64,000 nt of DNA from an uncultured Gammaproteobacteria bacterium (GTDB taxonomy: Bacteria > Patescibacteriota > Microgenomatia > UBA10105 > UBA927): NCBI GenBank assembly GCA_964394685.1, contig CAYMYO010000001.1:64040-128039 (forward strand), read 5' to 3'. Below the pieces are notes generated by a model. That model was given only the letters and a program-made list of their open reading frames with translations, did not search any database and was not told the origin of the DNA. A program made the position numbers and the translations under genes. Shown here piece by piece: positions 7,209-61,970 of this stretch; the first letter of the stretch is position 1; each line of letters starts with the position of its first letter.

Positions 7209-9606
7209 ATCTATAAAGAATCAATAAACAAACAGCTCCGATTAAACTTATATATACCCCAATGTTAAACGATTTCGGGAAATAGGTGAATGTCACTGTA
7301 TGTTTCCCTTCGGGAACAACTATCGCGCGAAATGCCCAGTTGGCTTTATAAATATTCGTTGTATTCTCATCGACTGTTGCCTTCCATCCCTCATTATACG
7401 TATCGCTCATAAATAGCATCTGTTGTCCATCTGTATGTGTAGAAAAAGTAATTTCAGTTGGAGTATATGATTTCAGGGACACGGTATGATTTTCTCCAAA
7501 TAACTTTGGAAGACGTGCTATGTCATTATCATGAAGATAAACTGTGTTATTGGTATTAGTTATGTTATAAAATTGCCGTTCAAAATCGTTTGTGTCAATA
7601 TAACCCTTGACATCTGTTGTGAGGAAAAATCTCGGAGCAGCCTTCATGTTTTCGAATATCGTCCATGTATCTTTTTGCCATACCGGTTTGAACCTGTCTG
7701 TTGGAAAAGTGTTGTCGGACATTGGATTTTCGGAGCGATTTAAAATGTATTTCACTCCCAGAAGATCCATTATGCGAAGTCTATACGTATTTGACGGAAG
7801 ATCATCAGCTCCATAACCAGGAGCAAGTTGTGCGTCGGAGCGGGTTGTTCTATTAAATATGTTTGCGATATTTCCATCACGACTGCTTTGAATAAATTCG
7901 TTATACCATTTGAGATTTAACGGATCTGTTCCGTCTGGAGAATAGGTGCGTGTTTGCGTAGCAAAGTTTGCCTCAATTGCCGCAGTGCCATATCCCCAAT
8001 ACCGATATATTCCGGAATTCGTTTTCATAAATTGCATGATTGCATTTTCCGGAAATGCGAACGAAGACGGTACAAAAGGATTAAACTTAATAAACGAATA
8101 AAATAGTTCGATTACGGAAAGGGCGATAAGTGCATAGAGAGCAAGTGATGAATATTTTTTTGCAATAAGAAGCGCTATGATTGCACCAAGAATGACAGAG
8201 GAAAATATCATCGCCCGTTTCATTACAGCAAACGATTGAGCTGTATAGGTAAGTCCGGGAATTGAAGGATGAATAAGAGCAAAAAGCCAAAGTAAAACAA
8301 AGATACCAATAAGTAGTGATATAAACGGAATAATTGATTTTTTTTGATTTTTTAATGCATCTATTCCAAAACCCGCAAGGATAGATAACGCAAACAGAAG
8401 AATAAAAAGAATTCTAGTTGGTGTTCCTGTTGACATGATGGGCATTGGATATCGGTATAAAAGTTGTGTTATTGGGGTATTGACGGTAATCAAAAGAATA
8501 GCTACAGCTGTCCAAAGAAAGAATACTTTATGAAAAGATTTTTTTGGGTCAATGAGTGTTGCGATGACCAGGGAAAAACCAACCACTCCGATGGACAACG
8601 TTTTCCCGACATAATCTCCGGTAAAATTAGTTTTTGTTGCAGGATTTCCAAAAAAGTCCTGAATAACAAGAAGTGGTAATTGCCACCACTGAATAAGCAT
8701 GTTTGAAACAATTTGTTGGTAATCATGAGCCACACGTGCGGAATTTTTGAATAATTCTATTGTCGGGAGGAGTTGGGGAGCGGCAAGAAGAAAGGGAATA
8801 ACAATGATAAATGCTAATCCGCCAGCTGGCGGATAAATAATAAATTCTATTTTTTCTTTGTTTGTCCACGATCGGAGTATTAATAAACGAATAGTTATAT
8901 AAATAACTAAAAATAAGAAGCAGTTTAGAAAATCTTGTGGATGTCCCGCAGTAATTGCTGAGAAAAAAGCAAAAATAAATAGAATTTTTTGAGCGAGAGT
9001 AAGTAATCTTTGTTTAATTCCGCGTTCAATAATAAAAAGTAGGAGAGGAAGCCAAAGGATGGTATACAAAATAGTAATAAATTCCATCCAAATAGAAGCA
9101 AAACTGGAAAAATTAAATAGAATTGCTGATGCAACAGCTGCAGTTGCGCTCAGTCCAATTTCTGTAGCAAATAGATAAGTAAATACAGAGCCAAGAAGCG
9201 GTTGTAAAATAATAAGAATTGTCCAAGCGATAATTTGAGGGAATATGTAATAGAAAATTGTTAACGGATAAAATACTTGTGATTGATAATTAGCAAGTAG
9301 TGGACTACCGGAAAAATTATACGGGTTCCATAAAGGCATTTTTCCTTTCTTTATTTCTTGTATAACGAGTGTTTTCCAGGGGTATAATTCCCTAATGACG
9401 TCAAAATATTGATCTTTCGATGGAATAGCACCTGCCACATACCCGTTATATGATTGGTGTCGCCAGGGGCCGTATCCTGATAAAAGTAAATCCCCCGGAA
9501 AAGGGATAAGTCCCCGAAACAGTGTTTTATAGAAGAAAAGACAGACAACCAGAAGAATAATTGCTATAGGTATAACGCGTTTAGGCATCAAGAGTATTTT
9601 TTTCAT
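7195..9606 (-). CDS. YfhO-family membrane protein (paralog of 3224-5530)
   Basis: The motif LIPFPGDLLLSGYGPWRHQSY is present. The 803-aa protein has many TM segments and a C-terminal YNEGWKATVD domain parallel to the + strand paralog. Confidence 0.65.
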   Translation of the reverse strand: MKKILLMPKRVIPIAIILLVVCLFFYKTLFRGLIPFPGDLLLSGYGPWRHQSYNGYVAGAIPSKDQYFDVIRELYPWKTLVIQEIKKGKMPLWNPYNFSGSPLLANYQSQVFYPLTIFYYIFPQIIAWTILIILQPLLGSVFTYLFATEIGLSATAAVASAILFNFSSFASIWMEFITILYTILWLPLLLFIIERGIKQRLLTLAQKILFIFAFFSAITAGHPQDFLNCFLFLVIYITIRLLILRSWTNKEKIEFIIYPPAGGLAFIIVIPFLLAAPQLLPTIELFKNSARVAHDYQQIVSNMLIQWWQLPLLVIQDFFGNPATKTNFTGDYVGKTLSIGVVGFSLVIATLIDPKKSFHKVFFLWTAVAILLITVNTPITQLLYRYPMPIMSTGTPTRILFILLFALSILAGFGIDALKNQKKSIIPFISLLIGIFVLLWLFALIHPSIPGLTYTAQSFAVMKRAMIFSSVILGAIIALLIAKKYSSLALYALIALSVIELFYSFIKFNPFVPSSFAFPENAIMQFMKTNSGIYRYWGYGTAAIEANFATQTRTYSPDGTDPLNLKWYNEFIQSSRDGNIANIFNRTTRSDAQLAPGYGADDLPSNTYRLRIMDLLGVKYILNRSENPMSDNTFPTDRFKPVWQKDTWTIFENMKAAPRFFLTTDVKGYIDTNDFERQFYNITNTNNTVYLHDNDIARLPKLFGENHTVSLKSYTPTEITFSTHTDGQQMLFMSDTYNEGWKATVDENTTNIYKANWAFRAIVVPEGKHTVTFTYFPKSFNIGVYISLIGAVCLLILYRYEKK

Positions 9607-15677: not shown

Positions 15678-17308
<1,631 letters not shown>

Positions 17309-17324
<16 letters not shown>

Positions 17325-18085
17325 TCCTGTCTGTCGCAATCGTAACTTTTAACGAAGAACAGAACATTGATGCTTGCTTATTATCAATCAGCCAACTGGC
17401 TGATGAAATAATCGTCGTTGATGGCGGATCGAGTGATACAACGTGTGAAATAGCAAAGAAATATAACGCAACAATTATCCACACAGATAATCCACAAATA
17501 TTTCATATTAATAAACAGAAGGCACTTGATGCGTGTCATGGGGAGTGGATTTTGCAGCTTGATGCAGATGAGGTGGTGACAGAAGAATTGAAGAAAGAGA
17601 TCCTGAATCCGCCAACTGGCGGACAGGATGACAAACATTATAACGGATACTATATTCCGCGGAAAAATTATTTTTGGGGTCATGTTATGAAGAAGGGCGG
17701 CCAATATCCCGATTATGTCATACGACTTATTCGTAACGGCAAAGCCCATTTCCCCTGTAAAAGTGTTCATGAACAAATTGAAGTTGATGGGACTGTTGGA
17801 TATTTGAAAGAACCAATGCTTCACTATTCATACAGAACAAAAGAAGACTATTGGAAAAAAGCAGATACCTATACGACGCTGAGGGCTCTATCTATGCAGG
17901 AAAATAACATCAAAAAAACGCTTGGTACATGGGTACGTTATAACATTATTCTTCCCATAAAAACTTTTTTTCTTTTATTTATCAGACATAAGGGGTTTAT
18001 TGATGGATGGTATGGACTGGTCTTTGCCTATTGGTCTGCGCTCCACTTCCCAATATCATATAAAAAATATCGTAAAATGCTATGA
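17309..18085 (+). CDS. Glycosyltransferase family 2
   Basis: The N-terminus is GT2-like (LSVAIVTFNEEQNIDACLLSI...VVDGGSSDTT), and the DADE motif appears in ILQLDADEVV. The gene overlaps the 3' end of 15678-17324. Confidence 0.8.
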
Positions 18086-18600
18086 AAAAAATAACTTCGG
18101 TTGTGATTTTATACATAATACTTTATACGTTATACCTTATACTTCCGCTTGCTGTACAAGCGGAATATGTTCTTCCCTATCCATCATCTATGCCGGGGAA
18201 TAAAATATATAAAATAACAAGATTAGTCGATTGGCTTAAGAATTATTGGTATTGGGGAGATATTGCGCAGGCGAAGTACCATCTCATGTTGTCGGATAAA
18301 TATCTTGTTGAAGCGAAAATACTTTTTGAATATAAACAATATTTATTGGGAGACGAAGCGCTTGTACGGTCTTCAAATGAGTGGCAGCAGATACAGCCGC
18401 ATCTCAATTTTGCAAAAAATCATAATAAAGATATTACGAAATTATTTATCCTCTATAAAGAAGCTGCACAGGTTCATGAAATAGTGTTGCGTTCATTTAT
18501 TGTTCCCGAATCAATACTGTGGAATCCTGAGAAAGGAACATCTACAAATTTATATTTAAAAGAAGATATCACGAAAGCGATTGAAATTCGTAAACAATAA
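18082..18600 (+). CDS. Hypothetical secreted protein (signal peptide)
   Basis: The start overlaps the upstream stop in ATGA fashion. The N-terminal hydrophobic stretch ITSVVILYIILYTLYLILPLAVQA has an AQA cleavage-like site. The mature part is hydrophilic and Tyr/Trp-rich. Confidence 0.5.
   Translation: MKKITSVVILYIILYTLYLILPLAVQAEYVLPYPSSMPGNKIYKITRLVDWLKNYWYWGDIAQAKYHLMLSDKYLVEAKILFEYKQYLLGDEALVRSSNEWQQIQPHLNFAKNHNKDITKLFILYKEAAQVHEIVLRSFIVPESILWNPEKGTSTNLYLKEDITKAIEIRKQ
18111..18145 (+). repeat. Heptad array R2: ATACATA ATACTTT ATACGTT ATACCTT ATACTTC (within signal-peptide coding region)
   Basis: Direct reading shows ATAC at a 7-nt period five times. The terminal ATACTTC unit is the same as in R1. 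Confidence 0.8.
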
Positions 18601-19753
18601 TATGAGGAGAATTGCATATCTGTATTACATTTTTATACTCGTATGTATCGTTGTTTTTTCTTATGGGTTTAAAGATCCGAATTTAACGTTAACAACCTCA
18701 CCGTTTCTTATTTCCATCACTCACCAACTCACGTACGTTGTGTATGTACTTCGCCCGTTAGCAACGCTCATTTTTTTAGGTATTCTTTTGAGTCTTTGGA
18801 GTTTTTATGCCATTGTATGTAGGTATGGAGAGAAATTATTTTCTAATTTAAAACATCTTGCGTTTATTATTATCGCATCAGCATTCATTCTTTCATTTTC
18901 TTATCCCGCGTTGACACATGATCTATTTAACTATATGACCACAGCCAAGGTAGCATTCACCCATGGAGAAAATCCATATGTTGTCATGCCGATTGAAATT
19001 CCAAATGAACCTTACCTAGCATTTACCAGGGCAGCTAATAAATATGCATTGTACGGGCCAATATAGATTGCCATAACTGCACTACCACACTACCTTGGTA
19101 ATAATAATATTTGGCAAACAATTATCATGTTTAAGTTATTAAATACATTTTTTTATCTTGTGTTTGTATATATGGTGTATCAGATAACAAAATCCTTGAA
19201 AAATACACTATTTTTCGCATTCAATCCGCTTATTCTTATCGAAACACTCGTTTCAGGTCATAACGATATTGTCATGATGGTATTAGCAGTGGCTGGACTT
19301 TATCTGTTTGAGCAAAAGAAAATATCGGAAAAAATAATTAGCATAATATTGTTATTTGCTAGTGTTTTGATAAAAGGAGCAACAATTGTCCTTTTACCGC
19401 TTCTGTTTGTAAGAAAATTTGACCGTGATCGCTTACTGCTTACTGCTTACTGCTTACTGTCCATCGTCTTTTTCATCGCAGCCCCCATTCGGGAAGAACT
19501 CTATCCTTGGTATGCAGTATGGCTTGTATGTATTGTGTCGTTTCTTCCAATCAAAAAGCATATGTGGCTGTACGGTTTTACAACAGTTCTAACTTTTGCA
19601 TTAGAGCTGCGGCATTTGCCATATATGTGGATGGGGTATTATGAAGGGCCGGGACCAGTACTTCGCACCATACTTACCGTTGTACCAGTTGGTATATATA
19701 TTGTTTATACCGGAATGCAATACCTATCAAAAAGACAAAATGAAAAAATTTAA
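18581..19753 (+). pseudogene. DUF2029/GPI-mannosyltransferase-like polytopic membrane protein interrupted by a single in-frame TAG (19064-19066)
   Basis: ORFs 18581-19066 and 19127-19753 are in the same frame, with 18581 = 19127 mod 3. They are separated only by TAG and read GPI*IAITALPHYLGNNNIWQTIIMFKLL across it. Both halves are hydrophobic, and their combined length of about 390 aa is typical for the family. Confidence 0.55.
19432..19459 (+). repeat. (CTTACTG)x4 perfect heptanucleotide tandem repeat inside CDS (encodes LLLTAYCLL)
   Basis: Direct reading shows four perfect copies. The TACT core relates it to the ATACTNN heptad family. Confidence 0.85.
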
Positions 19754-21220: not shown

Positions 21221-22813
21221 ATGAAAAAGTCGATTATCATGTTCGTTATACTGGCGATGATCATCGGTTTTGCAGCTCTACCTCTATTTAATTCATCATA
21301 CCTACCAACTCATGACGGAGAATACCATATTATCCGGATTGTAGAATTTTCAAAAATGCTTGCCTCTGGTTATGTATTTCCCCGTTGGGCGCCAACGTTA
21401 AATAGCGGATATGGAATACCGATTTTTGAGTTTCATTATCCGCTCCCTAACTATATCGGTTCATTTGTTCGACTATTCACGCATGACGCAGTCTATGCGT
21501 ATCAAATATCCATGGGACTTGGGTATATCATTGCAGCTCTTGGGTCATTTTTATGGCTTACAAGCCTGTATGGACCGTTTGCAGCAGCTCTTGGAACTGT
21601 CGTGGGAGCATATGTACCCTATTGGTTTGTAGATATATACGTTAGAGGATCTATAGGAGAAGTGTGGGCGATAGCAATACTTTTTTTCATTCTTTGGGCA
21701 ATTGAAAAGAAGCAACATATTTACACTGCAATTATGTATGGATTATTGCTTCTTAGCCACAACATTCTTGGAATGGTGTTTACTCCATTTTTATTCATAT
21801 ATATGATAATTCGAAATAAAAAAGCTATTGGAAGTCTTGTTTGGGGAATTGGCTTATCGGCCTATTTTTGGCTCCCAGCGCTACTAGAAGGGAAATATGT
21901 TGTTGGGCTAAACACTGTTAATTTTAGAGAGCATTTTGTTGCCTTGTACGAATTATTGATTCCGTCCTGGGGGACGGAATTCTCAGGGAGGGGTTTTTCA
22001 GGCAGTAAAATATCATTCCAATTAGGCGTTATTCCAATACTGATTATTATTGCATCACTTATAACGATAATTTTGGAGAAACAGAAAACCAAAAATATAT
22101 TAGTGAAATGGTTCTTGGTATTAGTTGGATTACTTCTCGTTTTTGTGCTGCCTTGGTCAAAGGGGATTTGGGAGGTAACGAGACCACTACAGTTTGTTCA
22201 ATATCCTTGGAGATTATTGTCGTTTATGATTCCAATAACAGCGGTACTGACTGCCTATTTGGCCAAAAAATCAAAAAAACCTTACGTTATGGTTATGCTG
22301 GCTATTTTGGCTGTCATTGCCACGTTTCCCTATACCAGAAAAGTTCACTATGCACCACGAAATGAAGCATATTATATGACTCGAAGTAATTTTACAGATG
22401 GAACATCATCTATGGGAAATAGCTTTTCAACGATTTGGACAGGTTGGAAAAAGGAGCGGCCGGAATCAGAATTAGTTCTTCAAAATGGGAAAATGACAAA
22501 AAAGGGAACATGGCAATATTTGAAAAAAGAATTCAACGTTCGTATGGATGCTGAGGGAATAGTGACACTCAATACGCTCTATTTTCCCGGTTGGATCGTC
22601 GTTGTTGATGGGAAAAAAGTGCCAATACTCTACCAATCTGACGGGATTATTCGTGCCTCAATTCCAGCTGGCATTCATGCTATCAAAATTCAATTTACTG
22701 ATACAGCTCCAAGAACTATTGGAAATATCATATCAATAGCCAGTTTGGTTGGGATCATTGGATGGGGTATACTGACTGTATATGAGAGTCGCAATCGACA
22801 CAACACCACTTAG
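21221..22813 (+). CDS. Membrane protein with PTPS-related domain (paralog of 15678-17324)
   Basis: The sequence LPTHDGEYHIIRIVEFSKMLASGYVFPRWAPTLNSGYGIPIFEFHYPL...YWFVDIYVRGSIGE matches the paralog. The C-terminal LYFPGWIVVVDGKKV motif is present. The gene ends with TAG. Confidence 0.6.
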   Translation: MKKSIIMFVILAMIIGFAALPLFNSSYLPTHDGEYHIIRIVEFSKMLASGYVFPRWAPTLNSGYGIPIFEFHYPLPNYIGSFVRLFTHDAVYAYQISMGLGYIIAALGSFLWLTSLYGPFAAALGTVVGAYVPYWFVDIYVRGSIGEVWAIAILFFILWAIEKKQHIYTAIMYGLLLLSHNILGMVFTPFLFIYMIIRNKKAIGSLVWGIGLSAYFWLPALLEGKYVVGLNTVNFREHFVALYELLIPSWGTEFSGRGFSGSKISFQLGVIPILIIIASLITIILEKQKTKNILVKWFLVLVGLLLVFVLPWSKGIWEVTRPLQFVQYPWRLLSFMIPITAVLTAYLAKKSKKPYVMVMLAILAVIATFPYTRKVHYAPRNEAYYMTRSNFTDGTSSMGNSFSTIWTGWKKERPESELVLQNGKMTKKGTWQYLKKEFNVRMDAEGIVTLNTLYFPGWIVVVDGKKVPILYQSDGIIRASIPAGIHAIKIQFTDTAPRTIGNIISIASLVGIIGWGILTVYESRNRHNTT

Positions 22814-23816
22814 TTCAGGACATAGTAATCGAGGGATTGGTGTATACACAAAAGAGCTTATTAGAGCGCTCCAAACATATGAAAAAGGCCATGAATATGT
22901 CGTTATTAATGGAATAACGAAACAGACCGCTCTTGTAGATGTGGTTCATTATCCTTTTTTTGATCCTTTCTTTCTCACTCTTCCACTTTCTAAACCACAT
23001 CCGACAGTCGTAACGGTCCATGACCTCATTCCTCTCGTATTTCCGGAACATTTTCCTATAGGACTTCGTGGAAATATTAAATGGCAAATACAGAAACAAT
23101 CGTTAAAAGGAGCAAAGCACATTATTACTGACTCAATTGCGTCTAAGTATGATATTCATCGGATTCTCGGACGGTCTGAAGAGAATATCCATTCAATTCA
23201 TCTTGCCCCATCTTCGTTATATGACCGGATCCCGACAAAAGAAGTTATTGTTGCGGTTCGGAAAAAATACAACCTGCCCGAAGATTTTCTTTTATATGTT
23301 GGCGATGTAAATTGGAACAAAAATGTTCCCGGACTTATCAAAGCTACTGCTTCCATCTCTACTCCACTCGTATTGGTAGGGCGTGCATTTCTTGACACAT
23401 CACTTGCAGAAACAAGAGAAATTAACGGCCTTATTTCGAGTCTGGGAAGAGAAAAGTTTATTATCCGTCCGGGGTTTGTGACAGATAGCGATCTCGTATG
23501 CCTGTATGAGATGGCGACGTGTCTTATTCAGCCTTCACTTTACGAAGGATTTGGTTTACCTGTTTTGGAGGCATTTATGAGTGGCTGTCCAGTTGTCGTA
23601 GCAGATAACTCTTCACTATCCGAAATTGCCGGTCCCGGCATCCGAGTGGATGCGCAGTCCTGTGAGTCGATGAGCAAAGGAATACAAACAGTGTTAGAAT
23701 TCTCAAAAGAAAAGCGCGCGCAACTTATAGAATGTGGACACGCGTGGGTGAAACAATTTTCATGGAAGAAAGTTGCTCATGAAACAGTCGCTGTATATGA
23801 AAAGGCTTTGGGATAA
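22782..23816 (+). CDS. Glycosyltransferase family 4 (GT-B)
   Basis: The motif [30 protein letters not shown] is the GT4 signature E-x7-E region. The N-terminal RVAIDTTPL..GIGVYTKEL is also GT4-like. Confidence 0.85.
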   Translation: MRVAIDTTPLSSGHSNRGIGVYTKELIRALQTYEKGHEYVVINGITKQTALVDVVHYPFFDPFFLTLPLSKPHPTVVTVHDLIPLVFPEHFPIGLRGNIKWQIQKQSLKGAKHIITDSIASKYDIHRILGRSEENIHSIHLAPSSLYDRIPTKEVIVAVRKKYNLPEDFLLYVGDVNWNKNVPGLIKATASISTPLVLVGRAFLDTSLAETREINGLISSLGREKFIIRPGFVTDSDLVCLYEMATCLIQPSLYEGFGLPVLEAFMSGCPVVVADNSSLSEIAGPGIRVDAQSCESMSKGIQTVLEFSKEKRAQLIECGHAWVKQFSWKKVAHETVAVYEKALG

Positions 23817-52408: not shown

Positions 52409-53454
52409 TGAAATCTTTGAAGAAAATAGTGACAATAATGGTACTATTTATTTCCAGTATATTGCTTTCTCTGTTTTGGTATCGAGACGTTTATATTACG
52501 GCTATTCAAGAATTACATAAAGAAACACTTACGACTGAATTTACAGAAAAGCCACTTCTAAAAGAAGATACACTTCACTTTGAAATTACGGCAAAACATG
52601 ATAACTTTGGCATTCTAAAATTACGACCAAAAACATTTAATCGATTTAATTACGACATAATTCATTTTCGATTACGTGAAAAGGAAACCGAAACCTGGAG
52701 CGTTAACAACGCATACGTTGTTGACGTATTTAAAGATAAATTATTCTATCCCTTGGGTTTTCCGGTCATTCCAAATTCGAAGGGAAAAACATATGAAATC
52801 GAGATAACTTCTGAAAAAGGGAGCATTATAGATTCAATCGGTTTTTATGGTGGGCATAATTCGATAGCTACGCAATATGTTTATTTAAGGGAAAATATTA
52901 TTTTTAATAACTCATTGCTAACTTCATTTGTAATAGCAAAGAGTATTAGTTTAATGAAAGACCCATATTTTGTTTTGTTCTATTTATTATTCCTGCTACC
53001 CATTTTGTATTTTTTTACAAAAAGCCCTAGAACGAGAAAGCATAGATATTTTATTATTGAAATATGTATTATTTTATATTTGTATTTTGTATATATTTTT
53101 CTTCCCGTGGATTTTGATTCAAACGTTATTATTTATGTTGTTTCTGTTACATTTCTAATTGCTATCAATTATTATTATCCAGTTTTAAAAAATTTATTTG
53201 TGGGACATAAGTTCTATCCAGTTTCAAAAAATTTATTTGTTGGACATAAGTTCTATCCAGTTTCAAAAAATTTATTTGTTGGACATAAGTTCTCTTCATC
53301 ATATGTTTATCTATTCGCAATCATATTATTATTATATCTTTTAATAAATATCGCCTTAAACAGAGTACTTGAATCAACTAGGCTAGCCTTAGCGGTATTC
53401 TATACAATTGTATTAGCCTTGGGTGTTTCCTATGTAGAATTTAAAAATAAATAA
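52405..53454 (+). CDS. Membrane protein with internal 13-aa x3 tandem repeat
   Basis: It has an N-terminal TM segment, a soluble domain, C-terminal TM helices, and the repeat PV(L/S)KNLFVGHKFY x3. The MMKSLKK start at 52405 overlaps the upstream TGA. Confidence 0.5.
   Translation: MMKSLKKIVTIMVLFISSILLSLFWYRDVYITAIQELHKETLTTEFTEKPLLKEDTLHFEITAKHDNFGILKLRPKTFNRFNYDIIHFRLREKETETWSVNNAYVVDVFKDKLFYPLGFPVIPNSKGKTYEIEITSEKGSIIDSIGFYGGHNSIATQYVYLRENIIFNNSLLTSFVIAKSISLMKDPYFVLFYLLFLLPILYFFTKSPRTRKHRYFIIEICIILYLYFVYIFLPVDFDSNVIIYVVSVTFLIAINYYYPVLKNLFVGHKFYPVSKNLFVGHKFYPVSKNLFVGHKFSSSYVYLFAIILLLYLLINIALNRVLESTRLALAVFYTIVLALGVSYVEFKNK
53179..53295 (+). repeat. 39-bp x3 near-perfect coding tandem repeat (CCAGTTTCAAAAAATTTATTTGTTGGACATAAGTTCTAT)
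   Basis: Direct reading shows that copies 2 and 3 differ at 1 nt and copy 1 at 3 nt. The unit is in frame at 13 aa. Confidence 0.85.
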
Positions 53455-58784: not shown

Positions 58785-59765
58785 ATGAAATTCTTAATTA
58801 CCGGTGGTGTTGGATATATCGGGTCACTAACAAATGCATTCATTCAATCTCAAGGACACGAGACAGTTGTTTTTGACAGCCTAGTCAATGGTCATCGGGA
58901 ATCTGTTGGAAAAACACCGCTTATTGTTGGAGATTTATGTAATAAAGATGAAATAGATGCAGTGTTTCAGGATGAACGATTTGATGCGGTGATCCACTTT
59001 GCTGCGTTTGCTCTTGCCGGCGAATCCATGGAACGGCCATATGACTATTTAAGAAATAATATCAATGGAACGTTAAATCTTCTGGATTCAATGCATAAAT
59101 ATGATTGCAAAACACTCATATTTTCCTCAACATGTGCAATTTATGGATTCCCAAAATCACTTCCTGTGACCGAAGAGTCACCTATCAGTCCAATGTCTAT
59201 TTATGCTCAGTCCAAACGGTCGTGTGAAGAAATAATAGATTGGTATGAGGAGTTATATGGTATTAAGAACGCAAAACTTCGGTATTTTAATGCTTGTGGA
59301 GACATGCCGGATGGATCTTTGGGTGAAGATCATGCACCGGAAACACACATTATTCCTGTTGCGCTTCAAGCAGCGATTACTGGAAAGCCGTTTTTTGTGT
59401 TTGGAAAAGACTACAAAACATCGGATGGAACATGTATTCGAGATTATATTCACGTACTTGATCTTGCTGATGCGCATTTAAAAGCAGTGTCTTCAATACT
59501 TAAAACTAAAGAATCATTGACAGTTAATTTAGGGGTAGGGAAAGGGTATTCAAATTTGGAAGTACTAAAAGCTGTTGAGAAGGTCACAGGAAAAACGCTT
59601 GATATTCAATATAAAGAGAGACGTGCTGGTGATCCGGATGCCATATATGCAGATAACGCGAAGGCAAAGACAATACTCGGATGGGAACCACAGTATACAA
59701 CCATTGAATCGATCATCGAAACCGCGTGGGCGTGGCACTCAAAGCACCCAAACGGGTATAAATAG
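58785..59765 (+). CDS. galE: UDP-glucose 4-epimerase
   Basis: The sequence KFLITGGVGYIGS is present, and the catalytic YAQSK (Y-x3-K) is in SIYAQSKRS. The C-terminal PDGSLGEDHAPETHIIPV and GTCIRDYIHVLDLADAH blocks are typical of GalE. Confidence 0.85.
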   Translation: MKFLITGGVGYIGSLTNAFIQSQGHETVVFDSLVNGHRESVGKTPLIVGDLCNKDEIDAVFQDERFDAVIHFAAFALAGESMERPYDYLRNNINGTLNLLDSMHKYDCKTLIFSSTCAIYGFPKSLPVTEESPISPMSIYAQSKRSCEEIIDWYEELYGIKNAKLRYFNACGDMPDGSLGEDHAPETHIIPVALQAAITGKPFFVFGKDYKTSDGTCIRDYIHVLDLADAHLKAVSSILKTKESLTVNLGVGKGYSNLEVLKAVEKVTGKTLDIQYKERRAGDPDAIYADNAKAKTILGWEPQYTTIESIIETAWAWHSKHPNGYK

Positions 59766-59800
59766 TATCAAGTATAAAGTATTAAGTATTACGTATAAAA
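59763..59800 (-). repeat. Heptad array R4 (GTAT every 7 nt on + strand; reverse-complement = ATACGTA ATACTTA ATACTTT ATACTTG ATACTAT)
   Basis: Direct reading shows AGTATCAAGTATAAAGTATTAAGTATTACGTATAAA immediately after the galE stop. It is inverted relative to R3. Confidence 0.8.
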
Positions 59801-59807
59801 AACGAAT

Positions 59808-60185
59808 TCAACCGTGGGATGCTGCACTTTTAATTAATCCGTTGATAAGTTTATGAACCTGAACGGTTTGTTGAGCAATAGATTGAAAAAGTTCACTTTT
59901 GAGATATCCCAAGTCTCTTGCTATAACAAGTTGATTTTGTATTTCTGTTGTTGATCCAAGCGCCATGTAATAAAATTGAACCTTATCTTTTCTTGTTCTT
60001 CTGGAAAATCCTTCTGCAATATTACTCGTTATTGATACCGAAGCACGCTGCATTTGGTTAGTAAGAGAATATGTTTGATGATGAGGAAATTCAAAAGTTA
60101 TTTTATAAATGTTAAGAACAAGTGCGTGCCCTTCTTTCCATGCGGTAAGATCTGTAAACGATTGAATTTTTGTTACATTACTCAT
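59808..60185 (-). CDS. Four-helix-bundle protein (23S rRNA intervening-sequence protein family, PF05635-like)
   Basis: The sequence FTDLTAWKEGHALVLNIYKITFEFPHHQTYSLTNQMQRASVSITSNIAEGFSRRTRKDKVQFYYMALGSTTEIQNQLVIARDLGYL matches the family consensus (W..a..l.l.iY.....FP..E.ygL.sQ.rRaavSI..NIAEG..R....). The ATG at 60185 is preferred over the track's upstream TTG. Confidence 0.8.
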   Translation of the reverse strand: MSNVTKIQSFTDLTAWKEGHALVLNIYKITFEFPHHQTYSLTNQMQRASVSITSNIAEGFSRRTRKDKVQFYYMALGSTTEIQNQLVIARDLGYLKSELFQSIAQQTVQVHKLINGLIKSAASHG

Positions 60186-60747
60186 TGTAGCCAGGATAGA
60201 TAACAATACATTTATCTTTTGAAATGTGAAGTTTTTCAACAACGTCCTTTTTTGTTGCTTCGGAATCGCACAAAAATAAAGAACACTCCTTTTTTGCGTA
60301 ATTCAGTCGTCTTTCTTGAACTGATTTTATGATTTCAGGAAAACTATCTGGATGGATAAGAAAGCTGACGTCGTGAATAGTTGTCATTCCAATGGTTTTT
60401 TTTGGGATAGGCGGTTGTGTCCAGTCGCTTGACCAAAAAATATCAAGCGGACCAGTAAACCAAGTAATTGGAATAATGTGGAGTGTATTCCAAAGAATAT
60501 CTAAGATCGTTGGTGGAATTGGTGTGTAGACCAATCGCACATTTTTACTTATTTTTTTGAGTTTTTCGCTAAATTCTTGTAATTTTTTCTGTTGTCGTAG
60601 AGTTGCGCCAAAAAGAACATACGTGTTGCCCGGGGCAAATTTGATCATTGCTTCTGTCATCTGTTCGACATACCGGGAAACACCGGTTCCGGTGAAAACT
60701 ATTTGGCTGATGTCAATGCCGATGGTCATATCTGTAGTATATCTCAT
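60178..60747 (-). pseudogene. GT4 glycosyltransferase, N-terminal (Glyco_trans_4) domain only, truncated before the donor-binding domain
   Basis: It is GT4 N-domain-like (IGIDISQIVFTGTGVSRYVEQ...TIHDVSFLIHPDSFP...ATKKDVVEKLHI...VIYPGYNE) and then stops. The downstream sequence encodes an unrelated four-helix-bundle protein, so no EX7E C-domain is present. Confidence 0.6.
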
Positions 60748-60749
60748 CC

Positions 60750-60784
60750 ATACTTTATACTTAATACCTAATACATTATACTCA
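60750..60784 (+). repeat. Heptad array R3: ATACTTT ATACTTA ATACCTA ATACATT ATACTCA, filling the 41-bp divergent gap
   Basis: Direct reading shows ATAC at 60750, 60757, 60764, 60771 and 60778. The minus-strand reading contains a perfect TATAAT. Confidence 0.85.
60750..60784. promoter_or_regulatory. Candidate bidirectional promoter formed by heptad array (-10-like TATACT on +; TATAAT on -)
   Basis: This is the only non-coding sequence between divergent start codons at 60747(-) and 60789(+). The hexamers arise at heptad junctions. This is inference only. Confidence 0.3.
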
Positions 60785-60788
60785 AGCT

Positions 60789-61970
60789 ATGGTTATTGCT
60801 ATTGATGGCTATGAAGCAAATGTTGAAAATCGAGTAGGTATCGGCCGGTATGCGTATGAAATACTAAAGCATATATACAAAATACGATATACAAAATACG
60901 ATATACAAAATACCAATTTCCGTATTTACCTCCCGGAGAAGCCACTGCCGGATATGCCCAAAGAAACAGCGTGGTGGACATACCATATTGTGAAACCAAA
61001 GAAATTATGGACCTTTATTGGATTTCCATTAGCTCTTTTCAGGGATACGCCCAAAGCTGACGTAGTGTTTTCTCCCACGCACTATATTCCTCGGTTTGTC
61101 ACTACTCCTCGTGTTATGTCCATCATGGATTTGTCGTATTTATCGTTTCCAGAGTTATTTAAAGCGAAAGATCTTCACCAATTAGTTCATTGGACACGAT
61201 ATGCAGCTAGTCATGCAAAACTTATCTTCACAATCAGCGAATTTAGTAGAAATGCTATAATTAAGGCATACCGGGTGAACCCGAAACATGTCGTTGTGAC
61301 CTACCCGGGACTGACGGAAAAAGTATCAAGTATCAAGTATCCCCGCCTGCCGGACGGGCAGGAAGTATCAAGTATGGAAATTACAAAAAAATACGCAATT
61401 GCAAAGCATTATATCCTCTCAGTAGGCACAATTCAGCCACGAAAAAATTATGAACGCTTAATTGAAGCATTTGCACTGTTTTTGCAAAAAAACAAGCAGA
61501 AATTTGGAACGATTGACCTCGTGATTGTAGGCAAAAAAGGGTGGCTGTATGATGAAATTCTTCATGCTCCAAAGCGATATGGCGTGGAAAAGCTGGTAAA
61601 ATTCTTGGATTTTGTGCCTGATAATGATTTACCGGCTCTTTACAAGAATGCATTGTGTTTTGCACTTCCCAGCCTCTATGAAGGGTTCGGATTACCGGTT
61701 CTTGAGGCTATGGCACAAGGATGTCCTGTCGTTGTCAGCAATAGCTCTAGTCTTCCTGAGATAGCAGGCGACGCTGGAGTTTATGTAAATCCAGCTAGTG
61801 TTGAAAGTATTGCGAGCGGGCTTTTAACAGCAGTTCGACAAAGAAACCTGATGCAAGGGAAAATTCGTGTAAAAAAAGGACTTGAGCAAGTTTCGAAATT
61901 CTCATGGGATAAAGCAGCGAAAGAGACAATAGATCTTCTCGAACGTGTAGGGAAAGGAACATTGATATGA
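60789..61970 (+). CDS. Glycosyltransferase family 4 (contains two in-frame heptad arrays)
   Basis: The N-terminus [25 protein letters not shown] is GT4-like, and the EX7E block [30 protein letters not shown] is present. Confidence 0.85.
60875..60916 (+). repeat. Heptad array R6: (ATACAAA ATACGAT)x2 ATACAAA ATACCAA, 42 bp in-frame within GT4 (encodes [14 protein letters not shown])
   Basis: Direct reading shows ATAC at a 7-nt period six times. Confidence 0.8.
61323..61378 (+). repeat. Heptad array R5 (GTATCAA GTATCAA GTATCCC | GC-rich hairpin | GTATCAA GTATGGA), 56 bp in-frame within GT4
   Basis: Direct reading shows the 7-nt phase conserved across the GC-rich insert CCCGCCTGCCGGACGGGCAGG. 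That insert has a 6-bp stem CCTGCC/GGCAGG and a 5-nt loop. The array encodes [18 protein letters not shown]. Confidence 0.8.

Follow-up and report, generated by a model that had tools for sequence, protein, structure and literature searches.

A 21-nucleotide hairpin within a heptamer array of a Microgenomates glycosyltransferase gene is very probably a copy of a mobile or dispersed element

The DNA analysed in this study is a 64-kb stretch (64,000 nucleotides of contig CAYMYO010000001.1, hereafter the window) whose host belongs to the Microgenomates of the candidate phyla radiation (CPR). At positions 60789-61970 of the plus strand it carries a gene for a family-4 glycosyltransferase (GT4) of 393 amino acids (aa), recognised as an open reading frame (ORF) and by Pfam. 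The N-domain of the protein extends to about residue 175 and the Glycos_transf_1 domain begins at about residue 204, and between these domain limits lies the inter-domain linker. It is in this hypervariable linker (residues ~178-198) that a very small GC-rich hairpin is embedded in a tandem array of heptamers, and an earlier note on this DNA, made from the sequence alone, had also placed the hairpin there.

Positions 61323-61378 read GTATCAA GTATCAA GTATCCC CGCCTGC CGGACGG GCAGGAA GTATCAA GTATGGA, exactly as first described. The earlier note saw here eight heptads with three of them replaced; the segment is better read as five heptads, (GTATCAA)x4 and GTATGGA, split at GTATC^AA by an exact insert of 21 nt. 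This insert, variant C of the element discussed below (CCCGCCTGCCGGACGGGCAGG, 61342-61362, plus strand), was delimited by its sequence, its folding and identical copies elsewhere. It separates an upstream part of the array (GTATCAA, GTATCAA, GTATC^; 61323-61341, plus strand), which was detected by Tandem Repeats Finder at 61321-61341 with a period of 7 and a 100% match, from a downstream part (^AA, GTATCAA, GTATGGA; 61363-61378, plus strand), defined by its sequence and by the alignment of orthologs. Deletion of exactly 61342-61362, which joins 61341 to 61363, yields (GTATCAA)x4 + GTATGGA and the peptide ...IKYQVSSME. The last heptad, GTATGGA, holds a Met codon, and Met stands at the same position in most of the aligned orthologs. 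In its present form the window copy is translated in frame as (P)RLPDGQ(E). The 21-nt insert keeps the heptad phase and the codon phase alike, and in this respect the 7-nt register is preserved, as had been claimed; the length of the 56-nt unit as a whole, which the earlier note had called in frame, is not a multiple of three, and the flanking direct repeat GTATCAAGTAT, considered there as a possible target duplication, simply reflects the periodicity of the array.

The hairpin itself occupies positions 61346-61362, with the stem formed by CCTGCC (61346-61351) and GGCAGG (61357-61362) and the loop by GGACG (61352-61356). Folding of the 21-mer predicts this 6-bp stem and 5-nt loop, with an energy of -11.1 kcal/mol for RNA and -6.7 kcal/mol for DNA. 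No 20-mer of the window is richer in GC than the one around the hairpin (CCGCCTGCCGGACGGGCAGG; 17/20, against a window GC content of 36.3%), which is unique in the window even at 3 mismatches; none of 100 shuffles gave a match. A paralog at 22782-23813 is 33% identical to the GT4, and a loose BLASTP alignment shows 7 residues fewer in the linker of this paralog. Exact-sequence look-ups of the window GT4 and P0001 proteins returned no recorded match.

The GT4 orthologs (loci are numbered with L and proteins with P) differ in what their linker contains. Two loci, L001 and L002 (P0002, 85% aa identity), have the identical five heptads together with another variant of the element, variant A (CCTGCCTGCCGGCAAGGCAGG), inserted at G^TATCAA of the second heptad. 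When this insert is removed, the L001 peptide becomes ...EKVSGIKYQVSSME, and the restored window peptide IKYQVSSME matches it. In L003 and L004 (P0017, ~75% aa identity), variant A is found at G^TATCAG in a three-heptad array. Neither heptads nor hairpin are present in P0003 to P0011, L006, L127 and L128 (81-83% aa identity). In a neighbour-joining tree built on 362 gap-free columns, the window and P0002 fall into one clade with the hairpin-less P0003, P0006 and P0007 (87-89% identity), and P0017 belongs to a different clade, together with P0012 and P0016, which have no hairpin. The three GT4 carriers translate the element differently, one of them as ACLPARQV; as they read it in different frames, it is the nucleotide sequence, and not the peptide, that is conserved.

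Moreover, the window and L001 differ both in the variant and in the heptad phase of the insert, and these states are not interconvertible by whole-heptad slippage, which means that at least two insertion events took place in the same 35-nt array. The earlier suggestion of a recombination hotspot is apt in this sense, that the array was struck at least twice, and in this sense only. Within 876 kb of Microgenomates loci the 21-mer was found only at this GT4 array, and two hits there, despite the rarity of the element in the lineage, argue for strong targeting. The same linker contains AAGCGTC heptads in one other ortholog (L005) and AAAAGTC heptads in another (L134), and in a further Microgenomates ortholog (L137:925-985) a different hairpin, TCCCGATCAAATCGGGA, lies within AAAAGTC heptads. 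The GT4 linker is evidently a place which tolerates such insertions.

Two observations concern hairpins of other sequence. One hairpin, CCCGATAGCTATCGGG, is related to TCCCGATCAAATCGGGA and is common to two Bacteroidota loci (L037:1138 and L102:7174). In L005 (2850-2900; P0022), a related hairpin with an 8-bp stem, CCGGCCTGCCCGGCGGGGCAGGCG, is found not in the linker but in the variable loop near the N-terminus of the GT4; it is read as SPACPAGQA and has the direct repeat CGAAAGTC on both sides.

The 21-mer is not confined to GT4 genes. A scan for the pattern CCYGCCTGCCGGMMRGGCAGG, which fixed 17 of the 21 positions, in a 596-Gb collection holding one genome per GTDB species revealed at least 119 loci; the consensus of the element is CCYGCCTGCCGG-MMR-GGCAGG. 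Among the matches listed, 75 lie in loci with a GC content below 0.45, for which no more than one chance match is expected in the entire collection. The earlier note held that the observation would be trivial if the motif occurred only once; this is the case within the window, but the motif is common outside it, and the objection therefore fails. Three main variants were distinguished among the 123 instances listed: B (...GGACAGGCAGG, 39 instances), C (CCCGCC...GGACGGGCAGG, 34) and A (...GGCAAGGCAGG, 32), the extra variants being single decays. The exact 21-mer of the window is variant C, which also occurs in phage contigs from termite gut.

The record titles among the matches listed are those of Patescibacteria/CPR, many Bacteroidota, Planctomycetota, Nitrospirota, Omnitrophota, Chloroflexota, Ignavibacteria, Margulisiibacteriota, AT-rich “Gammaproteobacteria”, and one metagenome-assembled genome (MAG) each of Spirochaetia and Bacillota; one 1.1-kb contig binned as Woesearchaeota carries the element as well. 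Cultured carriers include Flavobacterium soyangense, Maribacter, Arenibacter, Mucilaginibacter, Aureibaculum and Psychroserpens, and no cyanobacterial records are present among the 119 loci listed. All-versus-all blastn of the listed loci showed that the flanks of the copies are unrelated, and no larger parent element or master copy appeared in this comparison. A k-mer screen for sequences shared by at least 4 loci revealed no second cross-locus family, and sibling hairpins (see below) surfaced only with targeted patterns. When the three variants were compared by BLAST with the plasmids of PLSDB and the phages of INPHARED, partial or chance-level matches alone were obtained, so that these collections of well-studied cultured plasmids and phages lack the element. 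Searches of the literature with 17-mers and 12-mers returned nothing or unrelated primers, and keyword searches found no such element described outside cyanobacteria.

More than half of the copies listed (76/125, 61%) are contained in open frames of 600 nt or longer, and all frames are used. Inspection of the 21-mer shows zero stop codons in any of the six frames. The intragenic copies display an excess of the sense strand (57 vs 19, p = 1.5e-5) as well as a frame bias, being read as LPAG(Q/K)AG in 34 and as RLPDGQ in 14 of the 76 cases. In three proteins the empty site could be defined exactly. The LeuRS of a Giovannonibacteria genome reads KCP-TRLPDGQ-ECGG (CPTRLPDGQECGG) where that of Thermus has TCP-------KCGG; the 3-hydroxybutyryl-CoA dehydrogenase of Psychroserpens shows a 7-residue gap against two solved homologs; and in the Mfd of Aureibaculum exactly GLPAGQA is lacking in all 13 relatives (63-89% identity), with the DNA at the joint being GAAGG^TAAAA and nothing duplicated. 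The element length of exactly 21 nt is set by these 7-aa gaps and also by the heptads restored in the window, L001, L020, L021, L063, L067, L069 and L095. The base preceding the element is a purine in 107 of the 123 copies listed, and positions +2 and +3 are A/T-rich.

Matching 7-nt flanks, which a target duplication would leave, were found in only 8 of the 123 copies listed, most of them in evident heptamer arrays; the calculated random expectation is ~0.17 in 123. Strict heptamer arrays of differing units host 8 of the 123 copies listed and octamer arrays 2 (L052, L026), so that arrays account for a minority of copies. The interrupted heptamers include GAGTTAT (L020), AAGGTCA (L021), GGAAATT (L063), GAAATTC (L067), GATTTCG (L069) and GATTTGA (L095). 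The element is also nested in its own loop, at CC^GG, in L047, L055, L121 and L122, with a triple nest at L246:11422; it occurs in tandem in L017 and L050, and it may stand directly beside other small GC hairpins, e.g. TCTCCCC-N-GGGGAGA. In L219 (632-673) and L242 (2003-2044), two variant A copies are arranged head to head without a spacer, forming a 42-nt perfect palindrome which is REPIN-like.

In IMG/VR, 43 viral stretches carry the element. Several distinct tailed-phage contigs of one termite-gut bin (IMG 2820306284; L246, L241, L228, L224, L211 and L212) have about one copy per kb, all of variant C, including decayed copies with 1-3 mismatches and triple-nested ones. Four copies lie in a tape-measure-like ORF and three in a 759-aa ORF adjoining a tail-sheath gene fragment. 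This pattern looks like a burst in one host.

Taken together, these data make it very probable that the stem-loop in the GT4 gene is an inserted copy of a mobile or dispersed element and a neutral passenger of its host. The earlier idea of a miniature insertion proved correct: the closest orthologs, of 383 aa, lack the 21-mer, the 85% ortholog has another variant elsewhere in the array, and identical copies exist at more than 100 unrelated loci. The target duplication that had been proposed with it finds no support, as the Mfd, LeuRS and hydroxybutyryl-CoA dehydrogenase sites are longer by exactly 21 nt (7 aa) with nothing duplicated, and the regulatory readings are unsupported. At the window locus, a variant C copy would have been inserted precisely, without target duplication, into a pre-existing five-unit (GTATCAA)n array in the tolerant linker. 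As the element is 3 x 7 nt long and free of stops in all six frames, the insertion adds only seven residues (...KY-PRLPDGQ-E-VSS..., with the former Q now E) and leaves the enzyme intact.

As to mechanism, we infer that the element does not move autonomously but in trans, through an enzyme encoded elsewhere, which probably recognises it as a folded hairpin. Its target would be single-stranded or extruded DNA, for instance in hairpin loops, in heptamer arrays that have slipped or on the 3' side of other hairpins, with a weak sequence preference for a purine at -1 and A/T-rich +2 and +3 positions. Phages may help the element between hosts, and its length and six open frames would let the copies survive within coding sequences. 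That the movement follows a structure-targeted, single-stranded DNA route, as against an RNA-mediated or other one, is a possibility which we put forward tentatively and with some doubt.

A number of points weigh against mobility of this kind or limit its scope. The heptamer enrichment amounts to 8-10 cases, with an internal control that gave 1 (Fisher p = 0.036). Pfam identified no mobilising or transposase-like gene in the copy-rich phage contigs, where 39/48 ORFs were covered and only structural, packaging and methylase genes were recognised. No GC-skew strand bias was seen (66 vs 48, p = 0.11), which gives no support to a strictly lagging-strand single-stranded DNA route, and the sense-strand excess of the intragenic copies could point to an RNA- or transcription-linked one. 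With a single copy in the 64-kb window, the element need not be active in this genome, where its copy may be an old one. MAG contigs may bear wrong taxonomic labels, which have to be read with caution; some of the 16 high-GC matches may be due to chance; and a pattern fixing 17 of 21 positions under-samples the diversity of the family and any covariation. The sole co-varying pair under this pattern, T3/A15 vs C3/G15 (113 concordant and 10 discordant), fits pairing of positions 1-4 with 14-17, but the co-change may simply mark subfamilies.

The best-surviving alternative, although improbable in itself, is compatible with a mobile insert: the heptamer array may be a contingency locus for phase variation, with the hairpin interrupting it and thereby stabilising or modulating slippage. 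Phase-variable glycosyltransferases are well known in other bacteria, and seven is not a multiple of three, so that the gain or loss of one unit would shift the frame of the enzyme. Moreover, AAGTATN arrays occur in several envelope and glycosylation genes of the window (16316, 18108, 61321), with a different unit at 19431, and the number of units varies between orthologs (5, 5 and 3). The arrays are short, however, with 2-3 perfect units on each side; every assembled copy is in frame; independent assemblies of the same alleles are equal in length (L001 = L002, L003 = L004); and AAGTATN heptads are found in intergenic DNA too (59764, 60750).

It is very unlikely that the hairpin is a selected mRNA or DNA structure of the GT4 gene, such as a pause site between the two Rossmann domains, a site for an RNase or a regulator, or an attenuator. 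A local hairpin of this stability placed exactly at the domain boundary, and its presence in the same linker of three orthologs, could indeed be expected of a translational pause or RNA regulator, as the earlier note had proposed. Nevertheless, the position, heptad phase, variant and reading frame all vary between these orthologs and the nearest ones (81-83%) lack the hairpin entirely, while intergenic DNA and unrelated genes contain the identical 21-mer, which occurs in every one of the six frames. An Rfam search at E <= 10 produced only noise, with no matching family, and the predicted folds of the 56-nt and 121-nt contexts are no more stable than those of shuffled sequences (z = -0.39 and +0.54).

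Two further explanations are hardly credible. The first is that the palindrome was made locally, by replication slippage or template switching in the heptad array, with no outside source. Tandem repeats slip readily, correction of quasi-palindromes can create hairpins, and the array itself looks locally seeded from an ancestral ...AAGTATGG...; the insert is nevertheless GC-rich and unrelated to the AT-rich heptad, and all of its 21 nt are identical to 34 copies listed in unrelated GTDB genomes and to the phage-contig copies, which excludes chance. The second supposes that the seven residues (RLPDGQ / LPAGQAG) form a selected peptide motif, of which the nucleotide identity is a by-product. The frame bias of the intragenic copies is in its favour, yet this bias is better explained by purifying selection, which decides what insertions are tolerated. 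The same nucleotides are translated in five or six frames and occur in non-coding DNA, the GT4 orthologs read the element in different frames, and synonymous positions are invariant across phyla, with none of the diverse synonymous codons that a peptide would allow having been seen. Finally, an assembly or sequencing artefact (adapter or chimera), which might be suspected since MAGs supply most of the matches and some of these stand at the ends of contigs (L044, L120, L210), is of negligible probability, as cultured isolates carry the element, independent assemblies of one allele agree on it, long ORFs contain it in frame, and it has decayed copies.

If the GT4 stem-loop is a copy of a mobile element, its nearest parallel is provided by the SDR1-8 repeats of Nostoc punctiforme and its relatives, said to have been described by Elhai and co-workers in 2008. 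These are reportedly very small mobile hairpin repeats of 21-27 nt without coding capacity, often located in tandem heptamers and nested in copies of themselves, for which an RNA route is said to have been favoured. The 21-mer resembles them, as they are described, in its size, hairpin, unrelated dispersed loci, tandem heptamers, self-nesting and non-coding nature. Papers citing that work (PMC5861425, PMC4390886) state that SDR5 was inserted precisely into HIP1 and that SDRs are restricted to Nostocaceae. According to these papers SDRs are essentially confined to one family, whereas the 21-mer is found under the labels of about ten phyla and in phage contigs, and its host here is a member of the CPR/Microgenomates. 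Unlike SDRs, most of the 21-mer copies listed are intragenic and in frame. We therefore regard the 21-mer family as a new, much more widely hosted representative of this known kind of element (SDR-type).

Similarity to REP and REPIN sequences, which RAYT transposases (TnpA_REP, HUH Y1) mobilise, lies in their being short, GC-rich, imperfect palindromes which are dispersed, non-autonomous and probably recognised as folded single strands, and the inverted adjacent pairs of L219 and L242 recall REPINs. However, REPs are extragenic and species-specific in sequence, whereas the 21-mer is mostly intragenic and identical in sequence across phyla. A GTAG or CGTC tag unites the two tagged REP super-families (PMC3733652). 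We rejected identity with REPs because the 21-mer starts with CCYG, lacks either tag and is mostly intragenic (see the count above). Identity with a miniature inverted-repeat transposable element was likewise rejected, given the lack of terminal inverted repeats (there is a single hairpin) and of duplication at clean sites, and the 115 of 123 copies listed that are without matching 7-nt flanks.

The Rickettsia palindromic elements (RPE), attributed to Ogata and co-workers in 2000, are said to measure ~100-150 bp, to be restricted to Rickettsia and to lie in frame in protein genes, including housekeeping ones. The 21-mer shares with RPE the character of palindromic, selfish DNA placed in frame in coding genes, where a peptide is added and the protein is not destroyed, but it is far smaller and spread over many phyla. 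The mobile GC clusters of yeast mitochondria and the PstI palindromes of Neurospora mtDNA are also short GC-rich hairpins, polymorphic between strains and occasionally in frame (var1). Like the 21-mer, they are scattered in an AT-rich genome; they differ from it in being organellar and ~30-50 bp long, in the small target duplications of some classes, and in their unrelated sequences.

The array itself resembles the STRR, i.e. heptanucleotide tandem repeats of cyanobacteria and other bacteria (background in PMC4679880), in that genome-specific 7-nt units, here AAGTATN, are repeated 3-6 times at many loci. The STRR arrays described are mainly intergenic, whereas several of those in the window are inside coding sequences and one hosts the hairpin. 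The intragenic 7-nt units (not a multiple of 3) in the GT4 and other envelope genes are reminiscent of contingency loci.

It is quite possible, although short of probable, that the 21-mer represents a previously undescribed “nano” mobile family, the smallest known and among the most widely distributed, with one and the same sequence in CPR, Bacteroidota, Planctomycetota, Nitrospirota, Omnitrophota and tailed phages, which inserts without duplication at structured or repetitive DNA and continually adds seven-residue loops even to essential proteins like LeuRS and Mfd. With its siblings TCCGCC-N4-GGCGGA, CCCGAT-N-ATCGGG and TCTCCCC-N-GGGGAGA, it would make up a widespread and so far overlooked contribution to the evolution of prokaryotic genomes and protein loops. 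If so, a 21-base hairpin moves between unrelated sites and lineages, and its length of 3 x 7 nt and its six open frames allow it to insert harmlessly in coding sequences. That it hardly varies across phyla would then imply a conserved mobilising enzyme or frequent phage-borne transfer, the element would be a marker of recent phage-host DNA traffic across phyla, and some short GC-rich “loops” in the proteins of AT-rich uncultured bacteria would be explained. The question raised in 2008 by the cyanobacterial SDRs, namely which enzyme moves non-coding mini-elements and why heptamer repeats are involved, would be renewed, and culturable carriers (Flavobacterium soyangense, Maribacter, Mucilaginibacter, Aureibaculum) make it accessible to experiment. 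The GT4 stem-loop should not be annotated as a regulatory RNA. The window copy is ordinary in its local effect, and is of interest as the trace that led to a 21-nt element shared across phyla.

Heptads of the AAGTATN type are a feature of this genome: GTATCAAGTAT was found at <=1 mismatch 17 times, against 1.6 expected. In addition to the GT4 array at 61321, which hosts the hairpin, repeat searches revealed AGTATNA x5 directly after the stop codon of an epimerase gene (59764-59799, plus strand), AAGTATA x4.9 with a 100% match in the coding sequence 15678-17324 (16316-16349, minus strand) and AAGTATN x5.3 in the coding sequence 18082-18600 (18108-18144, minus strand). TAAGTAT x4.7 occupies the intergenic region between divergent glycosyltransferase genes (60750-60782, minus strand), a position conserved in L001. 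Another heptamer unit forms an array at 19431-19459, also inside a coding sequence. The arrays at 16316-16349, 18108-18144 and 19431-19459 lie in genes for proteins of the membrane or envelope (one is a PTPS_related membrane protein, and the other two have no Pfam match). Translated, they give hydrophobic stretches, e.g. ILYTLYFIL, and they may represent either contingency loci or insertions that are tolerated in transmembrane segments. Related Microgenomates loci contain 26 strict heptamer arrays in 876 kb, the units being genome-specific. The view that the heptads were left behind by rounds of insertion and excision, each with a target duplication of 7 bp, was considered and rejected, as clean sites show no duplication and one unit family recurs across the genome.

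The window contains other small hairpins. One, CCGCTTG-CTGTA-CAAGCGG (18145-18163), abuts the array 18108-18144 within the coding sequence 18082-18600 and is read as PLAVQAE. Another tiny GC hairpin has two copies, at 8818-8833 (TCCGCCAGCTGGCGGA) and 17608-17623 (TCCGCCAACTGGCGGA); the latter lies inside a GT2 coding sequence (17303-18085), where it is read as NPPTGGQ, and a locus of Ferruginibacter (L037:1164) has the identical 16-mer. In 1.7 Mb of collected loci there are 9 matches to the pattern TCCGCC-N3-5-GGCGGA, against 0.4 expected, and this looks like a sibling cross-phylum family.

The GT4 gene itself has a second repeat, a perfect 14-nt unit (ATATACAAAATACG) repeated 2.9 times at 60873-60913 and encoding 14 residues. 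At this place L001, L003 and L006 have unrelated, non-repetitive sequence of exactly equal length, and the encoded peptide is also present in the more distant P0012, which would fit a replacement or a recombination better than a plain insertion. Between the epimerase gene and a small glycosyltransferase gene, a gene for a 23S_rRNA_IVP / bAvd-like four-helix-bundle protein (59808-60242, minus strand; PF05635, E = 2.5e-35) adjoins the array 59764-59799; it is absent from the syntenic L001, where heptad-like sequence alone separates the two genes. Finally, in the most AT-rich part of the window, a 39-nt unit (TATCCAGTTTCAAAAAATTTATTTGTTGGACATAAGTTC) is repeated 3.0 times head to tail with 97% identity (53176-53293), adjoined by AT-rich repeats at 53046-53099.

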